Under the pieces are notes generated by a model. It was not told where the DNA came from and searched no databases. It saw nothing but the letters and a program-made list of their open reading frames with translations. From Candidatus Methanosuratincola sp. (GTDB taxonomy: Archaea; Thermoproteota; Methanomethylicia; Methanomethylicales; Methanomethylicaceae), in assembly GCA_029907755.1 (NCBI GenBank), contig JARYLH010000001.1:1-43318 (forward strand): a DNA stretch of 43,318 nt, given 5' to 3'. Positions within the stretch are counted from its first letter, which is position 1; the number at the start of each line of letters is the position of its first letter. Positions 9,366 to 14,971 of the stretch are shown here, piece by piece. Position numbers and translations under genes: made by a program.

Positions 9366-10391
9366 ATGGCCGAAATGACGCCGCGTAAACGTGCCCTTCT
9401 TTGCGTCACAGGCAACAAAAAGCGGGCGGACAGGATAAGCTGCATGGACACGCTGACCACAGCAACAGTCGAACAGATGAATGCAGTGAATGCGCCGTTC
9501 CCTGAGGCGAACAGGGATCCGCAGCTTGCTTTCAAGCTCGCAGCCGCTGCCTGGGAGGTAATAGGGCTAGAGGGTTTCAAACTGCCTTTCGACCTCTGTG
9601 TCGAAGCAGAGGCCTTCGGGTGCAAGATCAACTGGGGAAGGATAGACAGGCATCCCAGCGTAGAGACGCACGCCTTCAATGACCTGAAGGATCTCAAGAT
9701 TCCGGAGAACATTATTGAGACCGGCAGGTTTCCGCTGAAGCACAAGGTCGAGGAGATGCTCAGGAAGGAGTATGGCGACTACCTGCCCGTGATCAACCAA
9801 GTTACCGGGCCGTTCACGGTTGCCGGGCACATCTTCGGGATTGAGAAGTTCTGCATATGGACCAAGAAGAGACCGCTGGAGGAGGTCAAAGAGGCGCTAA
9901 TGCGCATATCCGAGATGAACATCGACGACTGCAAGAAGGCACTCCAGAGCGGAGCCGACATTGTCTGCATAGCAGACCCATCTGCGACCTCGGACATCCT
10001 GTCGCCACAGTTCTTCAGGGACGTGATGGTTCCAGTCTACCAGAACATGGCTAAGAAGATCGGGGCGCCCGTGGTGCTTCACATCTGTGGCAACACTTCG
10101 GCTTATCTGCCATACATTGCGGACACTGGATTCGACGCATTCTCGATTGATGCCCAAGTTGACCCCGCCTTTGCAAAGGCTATCGTGGGCGACAAGATAG
10201 CCGTAGTCGGTGGCGTACCGACGATTACTGCGCTGCTATTCGGCACGCCTCAGAAGGTCAGGGAGGCGGCGATTGATGCGATAAGGAAGGGTGTCGATGT
10301 GCTGATGCCCTCATGCGGCATCCCACCGAGGACTCCGACCGCGAACTTCAAGGCGATGGTCGAAGTAGCAAGATGCATGGTTTATGTGTGA
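9366..10391 (+). CDS. Uroporphyrinogen-decarboxylase-family methyltransferase (MtaA/MtbA-like, methylcobamide:thiol MT2 type)
   Basis: 341 aa. 'LHICGNT' (H-x-C) plus the later 'PSCGIPP' Cys match the MtaA zinc-ligand pattern. The fold pattern is UroD/MtaA-like throughout. Confidence 0.8.
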   Translation: MAEMTPRKRALLCVTGNKKRADRISCMDTLTTATVEQMNAVNAPFPEANRDPQLAFKLAAAAWEVIGLEGFKLPFDLCVEAEAFGCKINWGRIDRHPSVETHAFNDLKDLKIPENIIETGRFPLKHKVEEMLRKEYGDYLPVINQVTGPFTVAGHIFGIEKFCIWTKKRPLEEVKEALMRISEMNIDDCKKALQSGADIVCIADPSATSDILSPQFFRDVMVPVYQNMAKKIGAPVVLHICGNTSAYLPYIADTGFDAFSIDAQVDPAFAKAIVGDKIAVVGGVPTITALLFGTPQKVREAAIDAIRKGVDVLMPSCGIPPRTPTANFKAMVEVARCMVYV

Positions 10392-10401
10392 GGTGTTAGA
10401 G

Positions 10402-11076
10402 ATGGCAACTAGAGAGGAAATCATAAATGGGTTTGTAAAGGCAATAGTTGACGGGGACGAGGCAGCGGCTGCCAAGTGGGCAAACGAAGCGGTCGCGGCG
10501 AAACTAGACGCATACGAGCTCGTGACCAAGTACGGCGGCGACGCGATGAGTGTAGTTAACCAGAAGTACGAAAAGAAGGAGTACTTTGTCCCTGAGGTCC
10601 TCTGCTCCGCAAATGCGCTGAACGCGGCGGTGGAAGTGCTTACCCCCCACATGAAGGCGGACAAGACTGCTGTGCCTGCGAAAGTCGTCCTCGGAGTGGT
10701 CGAAGGAGACATCCACGACATAGGGAAGAACTTGGTCAAGATCATGCTCAGCGCTGCGGGATTCAACGTGATTGACCTAGGCAAGGACGTGCCGCTTGCG
10801 AAGTTCCTTGAGACCGCGAAGAAGAACAAGGCAGAGGTCGTCGGGATGTCTGCGCTGATGAGCACAACGATGCCAGCCATGAAGAAAGTGATCGATATGT
10901 TCACCCAAGCAGGAGCCAGGAACAAGGTCAAGATAATCGTCGGAGGCGGCCCAGTAACCGAGGAGTGGGCGCTCTCGATAGGCGCAGACGCAAGACCTCA
11001 CGACGCTTCAGCAGCAGTGGGAGTAACGAAAGATCTGGTGGCGAAGCTGAAGCAGGATCCGTCGAGTGCCTGGTAA
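10402..11076 (+). CDS. Corrinoid (cobalamin-binding) protein, MtaC/MtbC-like
   Basis: 'EGDIHDIGKN' (DxHxxG), 'MSALMSTTM' (SxL) and 'IIVGGGP' (GG) are B12-binding signatures, with a helical cap domain N-terminal to them. ATG 10402 follows GAGGTG. Confidence 0.85.
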   Translation: MATREEIINGFVKAIVDGDEAAAAKWANEAVAAKLDAYELVTKYGGDAMSVVNQKYEKKEYFVPEVLCSANALNAAVEVLTPHMKADKTAVPAKVVLGVVEGDIHDIGKNLVKIMLSAAGFNVIDLGKDVPLAKFLETAKKNKAEVVGMSALMSTTMPAMKKVIDMFTQAGARNKVKIIVGGGPVTEEWALSIGADARPHDASAAVGVTKDLVAKLKQDPSSAW

Positions 11077-11089
11077 TGGCAACTCCCCG

Positions 11090-11112
11090 TTTTCTATTTA
11101 TTTTTTCTTTTG
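11090..11112 (+). terminator. Oligo-T tract, archaeal-type terminator after the corrinoid gene
   Basis: 'GTTTTCTATTTATTTTTTCTTTTG' lies directly downstream of the stop at 11076. Confidence 0.45.
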
Positions 11113-11411
11113 TTAAATCAAACTTTTTCGCGCGGATCCCCCCACGCCACACAGACGGACACCGGGGGCGGAACGAAGGGCGCCGAGAAATCAAAAAGAA
11201 AAAGGGATTCTCTCGACCCAGTGAAAGCAATTCAGAATCTACTCTTTTACCGCATGCTTTTGTTCATTTGTAGAACGAGAATACTTATATAACATTCCTG
11301 TTAATCGATAGTTAGAACTTTTTGGTAGTGTTATTATTGAAAAAAACAAAAGTCGATAAAAGTGCTTCTCTTGGATTAGACTTGCCAGAGTTGGAGCAAA
11401 TCAGGAAGCGG

Positions 11412-11687
11412 ATGGCTAGCGATCCTTCGCTTGAGGAACGCCTGAAAAAAGATTTTCATGGCACCCTAAAGAAGGAGGGAATCAAGGTAGACAGCGCTTT
11501 TAGGAACAAGGTGATGGAGAGGCTGAACTCAAAAGTGAGGGCTGATCTGAGGGAGATCGTCACGAAGACGCCAGAAGCCAAGAACTGGTACCTCAGACGC
11601 GTTTTGGAAGGGAAGCCGTTGAAGATACATGTACGCATAGACAAGGAGACGGGCAGATGCGAGAAGTCGCTCGGGGGCGGGGGCTAA
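11412..11687 (+). CDS. Small charged, helical-looking protein ending in Gly-Gly-Gly-Gly; unknown function
   Basis: The ORF ends '...EKSLGGGG*'. Its stop TAA overlaps the ATG of the next gene (TAATG at 11685-11689). I prefer ATG 11412 over the track start TTG 11322, which lies in AT-rich promoter-like DNA. Confidence 0.5.
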   Translation: MASDPSLEERLKKDFHGTLKKEGIKVDSAFRNKVMERLNSKVRADLREIVTKTPEAKNWYLRRVLEGKPLKIHVRIDKETGRCEKSLGGGG

Positions 11688-13261
11688 TGCAGACAGGAGG
11701 ATACGACGTCGTCTTGGAGGTAAGGGAAGAGCTCCTGAATAAGTTCATGAAGGTTGGCCATTGCATAGGCGCATTCCCCGTGCTCAAGGGGACTTACACG
11801 CTCCCCATACCGAACGTGCCAGACAGCCTGAAGGAGTTCACGGTGATAGGTTACGAGGTCTCCCTTCCGAAGCCCCCGACGATCGAAGCCACGGCAGACA
11901 TGCACTTGCGGATGAATGTGAGGGGGCAGGCGAAGTTCACTGTGCTGGGGGGGATAGAGTTTGAGATCGAAGTCGAGTTCACTGTGGGGGTCTCCCCGTC
12001 ATTCGACCAAGCAACCCGCAGGCTGAAGATCGACCTATTGAGCGCGAGAGTTGACGACATCGAGCTGAACGACACTTACCACCTCCCAGCCAATGTGATA
12101 GCCAGGCTGAACGAGATACTGACGATCGCGATGCACGAGTATTTGACGGAGGACCTCACCACCCTGGATCTGAGCCCGGTCCTATTTGCCACCGAGCTAC
12201 CGAGGATGCCAGCGGGTGACGAGAACAAGCTCACCATCGGGCTGGGGAATTTCCGCATCTTGAATCCGTCTACACTCTGCGTCGCAGTCAACTTGCTCGG
12301 CTACAACGGCGGTGACATCAATTCGGTCTTGGACTTCACGGACGGGAGCCACATCGGTGTAGGCGTCAACGAGGGGGCAATGCACAGAGTATATGATTTC
12401 TGGTGGGACAGGACGACGCACCCAAAGTCGATTACTCAAACGGGTAGCCACGACTTTGACATGCCCTCGATTGTTGACTGGCTGGACGAGCTCGCCGACT
12501 GGGTGGTGGCTGCCTGCACGCTGGGGCTCGTCAGCACTGAGATAGACATTAAGCGGGTCTGGGCGGAGTTCGGAGCCACAATAAGGTTCAGCAAGTTTGA
12601 CTTCGACCTGAAGCCAGGCAATGTCGTGGAGATCGCAGGGAGCGCCTCGATCGACGCTTGGATGAGGGCGCTAGTCAAGATACAGACCACTACGTCGCTT
12701 TTCTGGGGGCTCTGGGACGTCGACACAGAGACCTACACTGGGGAGATATTCAGCCTGTCCGTCAACAATCTGGTCATCAACATAGACTCGGCCTCTGCAA
12801 AGGTTTACTTGGACGACAAGAATCAGCTTGTCGTTGACATACTTGACCTAGACATCTCGATACCGCTCGACTGGGAGATACCTGAGTTCCTGCTGAACTA
12901 TTTCGTCAACTGGCTCATAGACAGGATAGTAGAGAGCCTGCCGCCGATCGTGCTCTTCCCTGCCGTCATTGAGGAGAACCTGCCAGGAACCACGGTGAAA
13001 GTCAAGGCGACATTTACCAAGCTCCTCATCGATGAGCCGGAAGCATTGGTTGCCGCAAATATAGAGACTTCGGGCGTAGGGGCATATGCACCATACGTGG
13101 CAAACAAGTCCCCCGAGCATATGGAGATCCATAAGAAGGATTGTGAGTGGGCCCACAGGATTGCCGTCAGGAACAGGGTCTATTTCTGTGACCTTGAGGA
13201 GGCCCTTGCGAGAGGCTATGACGGGTGCAGGTATTGCATGCCCGAACACCACCACAGATAG
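11687..13261 (+). CDS. Unknown 524-aa cytosolic protein: putative tandem TULIP (BPI/LBP/CETP-like) fold with C-terminal Ada-type zinc finger
   Basis: Long ORF with good coding character and no signal peptide or TM segment. Its beta-rich amphipathic pattern resembles BPI in both halves. The C-terminus 'HKKDCEWAHRIAVRNRVYFCDLEEALARGYDGCRYCMPEHHH' fits the Ada-like H/C-C-C mini-domain. The fold assignment is by eye only. Confidence 0.55.
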   Translation: MQTGGYDVVLEVREELLNKFMKVGHCIGAFPVLKGTYTLPIPNVPDSLKEFTVIGYEVSLPKPPTIEATADMHLRMNVRGQAKFTVLGGIEFEIEVEFTVGVSPSFDQATRRLKIDLLSARVDDIELNDTYHLPANVIARLNEILTIAMHEYLTEDLTTLDLSPVLFATELPRMPAGDENKLTIGLGNFRILNPSTLCVAVNLLGYNGGDINSVLDFTDGSHIGVGVNEGAMHRVYDFWWDRTTHPKSITQTGSHDFDMPSIVDWLDELADWVVAACTLGLVSTEIDIKRVWAEFGATIRFSKFDFDLKPGNVVEIAGSASIDAWMRALVKIQTTTSLFWGLWDVDTETYTGEIFSLSVNNLVINIDSASAKVYLDDKNQLVVDILDLDISIPLDWEIPEFLLNYFVNWLIDRIVESLPPIVLFPAVIEENLPGTTVKVKATFTKLLIDEPEALVAANIETSGVGAYAPYVANKSPEHMEIHKKDCEWAHRIAVRNRVYFCDLEEALARGYDGCRYCMPEHHHR

Positions 13262-13271
13262 CAAAACGATC

Positions 13272-13284
13272 TTTTTTTTATTTT
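13272..13284 (+). terminator. Oligo-T terminator after the BPI-like gene
   Basis: 'TTTTTTTTATTTT' begins 11 nt after the stop codon. Confidence 0.5.
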
Positions 13285-13405: not shown

Positions 13406-13765
13406 CTAAATGATTGCCAAAAGCGCAAAGCCGAGCAGTGCCAACACTATGCCGATGATTATGAAGACCACGACCGTCAGGATTGCGATCAGCAATGCCT
13501 TGAGCCACCCGCAGTCAAAGAAGTGCTTGATCAGAGCCAGCCAGATAATTATCATGACTATTGTTCCGATCAGTCCCAACCCGAAGTAGCCGAATATTGT
13601 TCCCACGATAGTCCCGATCACAACGATCCAGATCGCGTCTGTGAACTTGGCCTTGTCTTTGCCGACACGCCACCTACCTACGAGCCAGAGCACCGGAGAC
13701 AGAATGATTACGCTGACGATTAGGTTTATTATGACAGAAACGAAGTCTACCATTTTTATACCCAT
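13406..13765 (-). CDS. Small integral membrane protein (about 4 TM helices), unknown function
   Basis: 119 aa, almost entirely hydrophobic helices ('VIINLIVSVIILSPVLWLV', 'IWIVVIGTIVGTIFGYFGLGLIGTIVMIIIWLAL', 'ALLIAILTVVVFIIIGIVLALLGFALLAI'). Alternative start ATG 13753. Confidence 0.65.
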   Translation of the reverse strand: MGIKMVDFVSVIINLIVSVIILSPVLWLVGRWRVGKDKAKFTDAIWIVVIGTIVGTIFGYFGLGLIGTIVMIIIWLALIKHFFDCGWLKALLIAILTVVVFIIIGIVLALLGFALLAII

Positions 13766-14146: not shown

Positions 14147-14971
14147 TTAGAATGGTGCAAATATGCCAATGAAAACCAGCCAAGCCAAGATTGTTTTCGC
14201 CACGAGGCTCAATAAAATGTAGACCCTCTCGCCATGGAGATAGTCTTTCCACTTGCCGATCCCCTTGTACTGTAGGAGCATGTTGATCGAGAATGTGTTG
14301 AACATTATGAAATAAAGGACGAGAGCCAAGTAGACGAATGTCGGGGGGCTTGTGCCAGTTGAATTCAGAGCGGCTACAAAGTAAGCCGCCATGACCACCC
14401 ACGGAGTGAACCCAGAGATGCAGCCCAACAAATAGGGAGACCAATCGATCTTCTTCGTATACTGGTTGATCTTCTCCATCAGGTAACCGAACATTATCAT
14501 CATCGCATTCAGTACGAAGATCATGACGAGGGACCACAGATCCCAGACCCCGACAAACGTAGCCAAGATCACGAGCATGATCGAGCTTGAGAACGCGTAC
14601 TCATACCAGCGGTAAGGGTTCATCCCTCTTTTCAGGTACTCTGTGTATTGCCTGGTCCTTGCGAATGCGATAATCATGTGTGTGGCTGCCGAGATCAGAA
14701 GGAAAGATGCCAGTATCACTCCCAGATACGTGATTGTGAAGGCGACCTGAGGATTTGGAACAACCTGGAAGACAGGAGGGGCAGACGGAATCACTTCGAA
14801 CTTGAGGTAGAAGGTGTAAATGTCCCGTTCCCATGCTAAGAGGGTGCCCAAGGCCAGCATGATAATTCCTTGCACCAAGTGGAGTGCGCCCGCAGCGATG
14901 TTCAGCTTCCTGAGGCTTCCCATGGTTATGGGGGATCTTGCGATCAGCTCTCTCCTCAAATCATTGTCCAT
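14147..14971 (-). CDS. Heliorhodopsin (7-TM retinal protein, inverted topology family)
   Basis: 274 aa. There is block-by-block similarity to heliorhodopsin 48C12 as I recall it. 'LHLVQ' matches 'FHLLQ'. 'NPYRWYEYAFSSSIMLVILA' matches 'NIFRWVEYSLSSSVMIVLIA' (counterion Glu). 'LQYKGIGKWKDYLHGERVYILLSLVAKTILAW' matches 'LQYKGKGKWSNYLRGERAYIVLSLVAKSALAW' (Schiff-base Lys). GGAG lies 9 nt upstream of the ATG. Confidence 0.9.
   Translation of the reverse strand: MDNDLRRELIARSPITMGSLRKLNIAAGALHLVQGIIMLALGTLLAWERDIYTFYLKFEVIPSAPPVFQVVPNPQVAFTITYLGVILASFLLISAATHMIIAFARTRQYTEYLKRGMNPYRWYEYAFSSSIMLVILATFVGVWDLWSLVMIFVLNAMMIMFGYLMEKINQYTKKIDWSPYLLGCISGFTPWVVMAAYFVAALNSTGTSPPTFVYLALVLYFIMFNTFSINMLLQYKGIGKWKDYLHGERVYILLSLVAKTILAWLVFIGIFAPF

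Follow-up and report, generated by a model that had tools for sequence, protein, structure and literature searches.

The gene pair and its products

We analyzed a 43,318-nucleotide stretch from the archaeon Candidatus Methanosuratincola sp. (assembly GCA_029907755.1, contig JARYLH010000001.1, positions 1 to 43,318; hereafter, the window). Our subject is a pair of adjacent genes on its + strand: a gene for a 524-amino-acid protein, predicted to be a double TULIP protein resembling BPI, LBP and CETP with a zinc module at its C-terminus, and a small gene directly upstream, whose product we call the partner. The features of the pair are listed below, with the secondary structure assigned by DSSP on a predicted model of the protein.

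11285..11292, + strand: TATA-like box TTATATAA, recognized by eye as a putative archaeal promoter; the two candidate TTG starts of the partner gene lie 30-45 nt downstream
11322..11687, + strand: partner gene, encoding a small basic protein of 121 amino acids from TTG 11322, or of 116 amino acids from TTG 11337 (the length annotated in relatives)
11687..13261, + strand: double-TULIP-plus-zinc-module gene (as predicted), 524 amino acids plus stop; its start ATG shares the A with the TAA stop of the partner gene (TAATG)
11687..12331, + strand: predicted N-terminal TULIP domain, residues ~1-215, with strand 8-13, helix A 14-26, strands 74-86/90-107/112-127, helix B 135-156 and central-sheet strands 189-203
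12332..13081, + strand: predicted C-terminal TULIP domain, residues ~216-465, with strand 223-228, helix A' 229-242, long strands 284-375, helix B' 400-416 and strands 438-462
13082..13258, + strand: predicted His-Cys3 (HCCC) zinc mini-domain of the Ada_Zn_binding fold, residues ~466-524
13130-13132 (H482), 13142-13144 (C486), 13226-13228 (C514) and 13235-13237 (C517), + strand: predicted zinc ligands
13270..13284, + strand: T-rich run tcTTTTTTTTaTTTT, 9 nt after the TULIP stop; recognized by eye, putative archaeal terminator

The open reading frame (ORF) called at the locus spans 11657..13261 of the + strand (534 amino acids), and the start at 11687 (MQTGGYDVV...) gives the 524-residue protein. 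Homologues from many lineages read M-x-T/S-G/A-G-Y/F-D from residue 1 onward. Since the N-termini of the homologues begin there, and since the ATG overlaps the upstream stop as TAATG, the sequence comparison identifies the start at 11687 as the correct one. The original prediction, made from the letters of the window alone, had placed the 524-residue ORF at the same positions, and the peptide strings that it quoted were all found in the translation. Several NCBI records start the gene at the upstream ATG (534 amino acids), so that it overlaps the partner gene by the additional segment (11657-11686, + strand).

An identical protein is present in public records, labelled solely as "hypothetical protein". 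Our homologue search returned 61 clusters, nearly all of 517-539 amino acids, and an exhaustive search with a hidden Markov model (HMM) returned 83 representatives at E<=1e-30. Compared with the other Methanosuratincola copies, the gene has a ratio of nonsynonymous to synonymous substitution rates (dN/dS) of 0.06-0.08, indicating strong purifying selection. These three results show that the ORF is real and not a chance reading frame. The best genome matches (93-95% identity) were Ca. Methanosuratincola petrocarbonis and verstraetei, of the phylum Thermoproteota, and not the Thermoplasmata, where the original prediction had proposed to survey homologues. No Pfam, NCBIfam or PADLOC family matched the TULIP body, even among distant members; the Pfam and NCBIfam scans of the protein gave nothing significant, and no known enzyme family claimed the protein in profile searches. 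A ureidoglycolate hydrolase, the one match other than Ada in a PDB sequence search (E 0.095), was rejected as a chance match, being supported by 14 bits, missing from the profile search and of unrelated fold.

We found no signal peptide or transmembrane helix in the 524-residue protein by a Kyte-Doolittle scan, as had been proposed originally, because the N-terminus is not hydrophobic and the highest 19-residue mean was 1.55, within a stretch that contains prolines and charged residues. The conserved fold starts within the first few residues in almost all of the 59 family members aligned, very distant ones included. Judged solely by this absence of export signals, the protein is probably cytoplasmic.

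The partner gene is also under purifying selection (dN/dS 0.07-0.14). A homologous small ORF lies directly upstream of the TULIP gene in 26 of 33 loci, with its stop usually overlapping or abutting the TULIP start; the loci with a partner include those of Methanosuratincola, Bathyarchaeia, Methanoperedens, Methanosarcinaceae, Methanosaeta, Methanomicrobiaceae, Methanocalculus, Methanospirillum, Methanocellaceae and a Clostridiaceae bacterium. The partner family comprises 43 clusters, all annotated as hypothetical, and its Pfam matches were all sub-threshold noise. We considered and rejected an NHLP/Nif11-type leader peptide (NF038399, E 0.086, 12.9 bits against a cut-off of 40 bits); no enzymes for ribosomally synthesized and post-translationally modified peptides were seen nearby. 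In one family member of 646 residues (P0081), the partner region is fused to the N-terminus of the TULIP protein (hhalign 93.9%, E 1.5e-7). The two products carry opposite charges: in the window the net charge is +11 for the partner and -34 for the TULIP protein, and across 17 pairs the means are +9 and -48 (TULIP range -15 to -67). The partner most likely binds the TULIP protein.

The two genes are translationally coupled. A T-rich stretch (11090-11115) lies between the preceding gene, which encodes a corrinoid protein, and the TATA-like box. With this box ahead of the pair, and with T-runs after the corrinoid-protein gene and after the TULIP stop, the pair looks like a transcription unit of its own, a two-gene operon.

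Predicted fold and zinc module

An AlphaFold2 model of the 524-residue protein was built on a 28-sequence alignment, with a mean predicted local distance difference test score (pLDDT) of 80.4 and a predicted template modelling score (pTM) of 0.74. The same order of secondary structure occurs twice in the model, opening with a short strand and helix A, running on through several very long antiparallel strands to a long helix B, and closing with short strands. The closing short strands of each half are of the kind that forms the central sheet in BPI-like proteins, and the TULIP core, a long helix in a highly twisted antiparallel sheet, is thus predicted twice. Helix A' holds the most conserved motif of the family (NEgAMHRVYDFWW), whose W240 is conserved family-wide. 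A Foldseek search against the PDB returned TULIP proteins as its top 12 matches, each at probability 1.0. The matches include the following.

BPI (1bp1 / 1ewf): E 3.7e-15 / 9e-14
LBP (4m4d): E 2.8e-14
CETP (2obd): E 9e-13
Clostridium botulinum P47 (5wix): E 2e-10
OrfX3 (8bgm_B, 8fbd_B): E 8e-10, 2e-8
Escherichia coli YceB: E 3e-4, TMt 0.52-0.54, one domain only
BPIFA1: E about 2e-3, matched domain-wise

The matches to double-domain proteins cover the full length (~530 columns). Pore-forming proteins and gasdermins appeared at low probability only, and a viral fold library gave no match to the TULIP body. A two-domain BPI-like protein had been read by eye in the original prediction, and the search of the model placed BPI, LBP and CETP on top, rather than an unrelated fold.

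Three further results support the TULIP fold independently of Foldseek. In the family alignment, the N half (1-215) aligns with the C half (216-465) over 163 columns (hhalign 79%, E 1.6e-5), so that, at the level of sequence profiles, the halves are duplicated, as a double TULIP, a pseudo-dimer, should be. In long strands such as IEFEIEVEFTVGV one face is hydrophobic and the other acidic, and strands 74-86 and 90-107 are amphipathic (z = 3.3-3.5). Finally, DUF1439, the YceB family, was matched weakly by two of the 28 alignment members, and the one match that was mapped (P0061, residues 53-102) falls in the strands of the N domain. The LBP_BPI_CETP Pfam models did not match the 524-residue protein at E<=1, were absent from the 17 families matched at E<=10 by any of the 28 alignment members, and gave nothing in 20 further family and zinc-module proteins scanned at E<=0.01-0.1. 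On the model and these comparisons, with two homologous domains in one chain that align over their full length to BPI, LBP and CETP, the assignment of the protein as a tandem TULIP of BPI/LBP/CETP-like arrangement is supported.

The C-terminal module has been traced to the Ada N-terminal zinc domain (PF02805; PDB 1adn, 1wpk) through an intermediate group of proteins. Its four predicted ligands, H482, C486, C514 and C517, are invariant in the 28-sequence alignment, and have the spacing X-x3-C ... C-x2-C and the signature G-[YF]-x-x-C-x-x-C, both shared with the Ada domain and DUF6233. A PDB sequence search aligned residues 486-521 weakly to Ada residues 42-76 (E 1.4-3), with C486, C514 and C517 falling on Ada C42, C69 and C72, and with H482 placed four residues before C486, as Cys38 is before Cys42 in Ada. 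The 524-residue protein did not match PF02805 at its gathering threshold (23 bits), and the best of the 28 alignment members reached E 0.1. Positions 465-524 of the family profile matched many proteins with 2-7 tandem copies of the module (P0121, P0134, P0141, P0150, P0206 and about 30 others, with the H-x3-C...C-x2-C pattern), and these tandem-module proteins score on Pfam PF02805 at E 1e-33 (99-116 bits), and also on DUF6233. The tie of our module to PF02805 is therefore transitive only. In the viral fold library, a 64-residue viral protein matched the zinc module with a root-mean-square deviation of 0.8 A. The HCCC mini-domain was also seen as the C-terminal part of very large proteins that carry Ig-like, VWA and lectin domains.

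In Ada, Cys38 is the nucleophilic methyl acceptor that switches the protein on. The first ligand was His in all of the 107 related modules examined, with no equivalent of Cys38 there, and many of the proteins that host tandem modules begin with signal peptides or lipoboxes. Our protein also differs from Ada in having no AraC-type helix-turn-helix or methyltransferase domain. We conclude that the module is a distinct HCCC variant of the Ada fold, without the methyl-acceptor Cys and common in proteins with export signals. Because His replaces Cys38, and because the same variant is used in proteins with export signals, it cannot be taken for granted that the module binds DNA. Of the original description of the tail as an Ada-like zinc mini-domain that is normally DNA-binding, the Ada-like part thus stands, given the invariant ligands (the proposed conservation of the Cys and His residues holds for all four) and the link to PF02805, and the DNA-binding part does not carry over, given the HCCC arrays behind export signals. 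The Ada-type zinc fold thus has a widespread His-Cys3 variant that is used outside DNA repair.

Distribution and genomic neighbourhood

The family was found mainly in anaerobic archaea, with some members in Chloroflexota and Clostridia, and cultured strains that have it include Methanosuratincola petrocarbonis LWZ-6, Methanospirillum stamsii Pt1 and Methanocalculus chunghsingensis. The copies of Thermoproteota share 60-68% identity with those of Halobacteriota and stand in unrelated contexts, which suggests either horizontal spread or strong constraint. Several variants of the architecture were identified. Three members (P0082, P0110 and P0130) have four hemopexin repeats between the TULIP domains (Pfam E 7.9e-41 in P0082), keeping the leaderless N-terminus and the zinc module, and others, such as P0091, have a C-terminal extension beyond the zinc module. 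In a distant bacterial branch, represented by two metagenomic contigs, two adjacent paralogous double-TULIP-plus-zinc genes replace the small partner. The upstream paralogue (536 amino acids) matches the family profile at E 1.4e-52, and the pairs, with the two genes 18-24 nt apart, lie as follows.

Contig L043, 4372-7740: paralogue pair, about 535 + 575 amino acids
Contig L044, 4372-7722: paralogue pair, about 535 + 575 amino acids

These pairs suggest TULIP hetero-oligomers, as in orfX clusters.

We inspected 12 genomic contexts with called genes. The partner apart, the neighbours of the TULIP gene differ from lineage to lineage. In the window, the genes closest to the pair are the following.

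9366-11076, + strand: gene of a URO-D-family methyltransferase (MtaA-like, E 2.8e-67), overlapping the gene of a B12-binding corrinoid protein (E 4.9e-29)
13406-13765, - strand: membrane-protein ORF of 119 amino acids, between the TULIP gene and the heliorhodopsin gene, on the strand of the latter
14147-14971, - strand: heliorhodopsin gene, full-length (Pfam PF18761, E 1.8e-91), 0.9 kb downstream of the TULIP gene

The URO-D-like and corrinoid genes look like the methyl-transfer pair of methyl-reducing methanogenesis, separate from the TULIP unit. Among the contexts inspected, a heliorhodopsin neighbour was limited to the four Methanosuratincola contigs; no rhodopsin was found in the Methanoperedens, Methanospirillum, Methanocellales, Bathyarchaeia, Brockarchaeota and Clostridiaceae contexts, nor in three metagenomic contigs. 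Within Methanosuratincola, a methyl-reducing methanogen, the heliorhodopsin arrangement is syntenic in other contigs. The cultured relative originated from an oil field (PMC12244365). A light sensor is odd in a presumably dark habitat. An hmmscan of the 119-residue ORF returned nothing; its 114-residue counterpart in contig L001 carries a precomputed match to PF22263 (DUF6951). This small membrane protein may be a partner of the heliorhodopsin.

FtsX/MacB-type ABC transporter genes occur no more than a few kb from the TULIP unit in two of the 12 contexts (L039 9400-10593 and L042 10082-13172). Two contexts are too few for an association with an ABC transporter, and we treated it as an unproven coincidence. 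At the scale of the window, the cumulative GC skew climbs almost monotonically over the 43 kb, from -0.06 to +2.64, and in the 9-17 kb stretch most family-assigned genes are on the + strand (URO-D-like, corrinoid, the pair, eIF5A and SRP54).

Possible function of the double TULIP and its partner

Among proteins of known structure, the best full-length matches of the model were BPI, LBP and CETP, with which it would share the two half-barrels, the strand ahead of helix A at the N-terminus and the central-sheet strands. It lies outside their sequence family, and differs from them in its low identity (9-11%), in the lack of an LBP_BPI_CETP match and of a signal peptide, in being strongly acidic where BPI is cationic, and in its zinc module, operonic partner and archaeal host. 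The leaderless P47 and OrfX proteins work as co-encoded sets, including the small OrfX1 bound to the large OrfX3. P47 and OrfX1/2/3 (PDB 5wix, 8bgm, 8fbd) resemble our protein structurally (E 2e-10 to 2e-8), a small-plus-large TULIP complex (OrfX1-OrfX3) is among the fold matches, and the paralogue pairs of the distant bacterial branch are a further likeness. The differences are that no neurotoxin cluster and no sequence similarity were detected here, and that OrfX/P47 have no zinc module. Among the exported bacterial families, DUF4403 is a full-length pseudo-dimer like BPI, and YceB/DUF1439, DUF4403, DUF2140 and DUF2993 are exported, lipoproteins or membrane-anchored (PMC6791001); the protein described here is leaderless, and no Pfam model scores it above threshold.

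By analogy, the pair may work most nearly as TipA/TipB of Bdellovibrio bacteriovorus does. There, one operon encodes a BPI-like double TULIP and a small protein that binds it, clamps the edge of its sheet, opens the fold and controls access to the lumen (bioRxiv 10.1101/2025.09.09.675085). TipA is secreted (its structure was solved minus the signal peptide), destabilizes membranes and dimerizes via a hairpin, and TipB is a C2-like beta-sandwich (bioRxiv 10.1101/2025.09.09.675085). The likeness lies in the small partner gene in an operon with a double TULIP, as found in the 26 loci and in the natural fusion described above. No TipA/TipB entry was present among the 50 listed PDB matches of the model.

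We put at about an even chance that this leaderless double TULIP is a cytoplasmic carrier of a hydrophobic ligand, regulated by the small partner as an adapter. The two predicted half-barrels would enclose hydrophobic cavities for a lipid or some other hydrophobic cargo. The basic partner would dock on the acidic TULIP protein, probably adding a hairpin to the edge of its sheet, and could then gate loading and unloading, or bridge the complex to an anionic membrane, as TipB does for TipA. The zinc module would act as a knob for docking or interaction, and not as an Ada-type methyl-accepting DNA sensor. More tentatively, the protein could be the first member of an undescribed family of lipid-transfer proteins that occur mainly in archaea and act inside the cell, where they would move or extract isoprenoid membrane lipids or another hydrophobic cofactor; the small basic adapter would then switch the carrier on and off, and the HCCC zinc knob would anchor it.

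Several observations weigh against a regulated carrier. No recurring lipid-metabolism neighbours were found in the contexts inspected. The net charge of the TULIP protein (-34 to -67), opposite to that of the cationic BPI, would repel anionic membranes, and a review of the superfamily notes, in a section heading, that some TULIPs have no hollow interior (Wong & Levine 2017, PMC5507252). The partner is missing from 7 of the 33 loci, and its AlphaFold2 model, which is weak (pLDDT 70.6, pTM 0.34), has four or five helices (17-91) followed by a beta-hairpin (96-113), with no Foldseek match below E 1; it is helical with a single hairpin, and not a C2-like beta-sandwich as TipB is. The zinc module, kept by 46 of the 59 aligned members (distant representatives plus nine closer ones), is missing from the other 13. 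Finally, the TM-scores to BPI and CETP are modest (0.39-0.45), below the usual mark for the same fold, plausibly owing to the angle between the domains of an elongated protein and to the extra C-terminal zinc module.

These TM-scores below 0.5, the small size of the alignment behind the model (28 sequences), the lack of a significant sequence link to any TULIP Pfam family, and the extreme acidity beside a basic partner could also be accommodated if the TULIP likeness were an artefact or convergent, and the protein a non-lipid acidic scaffold that sequesters its basic partner or mimics nucleic acid. We regard this as rather improbable: eight different TULIP structures lead the matches, all with probability 1.0 and at about E 1e-8 to 4e-15, no other fold combines a low E with a high probability, and the duplication and the order of secondary structure fit the double-TULIP plan independently of Foldseek. 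Somewhat less improbable, although still unlikely, is a conflict module of the toxin/effector-plus-antidote or abortive-infection kind, in which the acidic double TULIP would act as an effector that perturbs membranes or extracts lipids, with the basic upstream protein as its inhibitor or chaperone. BPI permeabilizes membranes, and OrfX/P47 accompany toxins. The compact, translationally coupled unit with a small upstream gene would fit such a module, as would the leaderless, toxin-associated P47 and OrfX3 among the structural matches and the destabilization of membranes by TipA, and the patchy occurrence across distant phyla, at the identities given above and with unrelated flanks, suggests mobility. 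However, PADLOC gave no matches, no defence, transposase or integrase genes were seen to recur in the contexts inspected, the neighbours being housekeeping, and the purifying selection and the synteny in Methanosuratincola look like those of a resident gene. The GC content of the gene (0.552, compared with a window mean of 0.561) also gives no island signal, and a horizontally acquired island in the window is not supported on this basis.

A DNA-binding and a retinoid-carrying role, both put forward in the original prediction, fared worse. A ligand-sensing DNA binder, with the TULIP tube as the sensor of a hydrophobic molecule and the Ada-type zinc finger as the DNA-binding part of a transcriptional regulator, is favoured by the relationship of the C-terminal module to the Ada domain, which contacts DNA in Ada, and by the retention of the module in most family members. 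We nevertheless consider it quite improbable, given the His in place of Cys38, the strongly negative net charge of the protein with a zinc tail that is about neutral in the family pairs compared, the exclusively HCCC composition of the related mini-domains, many of them arrayed behind signal peptides or lipoboxes and probably extracytoplasmic, and the lack of a helix-turn-helix or other DNA-binding domain and of a conserved target gene nearby. To a retinal or carotenoid carrier serving the neighbouring heliorhodopsin we assign next to no weight. The heliorhodopsin gene is close by, on the opposite strand, and juvenile hormone is an example of the isoprenoid-type ligands that TULIPs can carry (PMC5507252), but the adjacency was found only in Methanosuratincola, and the two genes are convergent and not co-transcribed. 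The retinoid part of the originally proposed lipid or retinoid carrier is thus largely refuted, since the heliorhodopsin context is not conserved across the 12 contexts.

TULIP lipid carriers hold a central place in eukaryotic lipid traffic and in innate immunity. The known prokaryotic TULIPs are bacterial, and those with a stated location (YceB, DUF4403, DUF2140, DUF2993 and TipA) are exported (PMC5507252, PMC6791001). An archaeal TULIP is not mentioned in the TULIP reviews and surveys consulted (PMC5507252, PMC6791001), one of which, in 2017, called for archaeal sequences to be mined (PMC5507252), and no paper in the library searched combined TULIP, BPI, lipid and archaea. A study of 2025-26 describes little as known of any lipid-transfer proteins in archaea, and 9 of 14 carrier classes as nearly exclusive to eukaryotes. 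The TULIP fold and the zinc module are known; the unannotated family, its architecture, its dedicated partner, and the unexpected host and probable location are new. The family is a concrete candidate for an archaeal lipid carrier, present in cultured strains, and its built-in partner and zinc module could show how such carriers are controlled. If the tentative reading as intracellular lipid-transfer proteins holds true, adapter-controlled, pseudo-dimeric lipid carriers of the BPI/CETP type would occur in archaea independently of eukaryotes, in cells without organelles.

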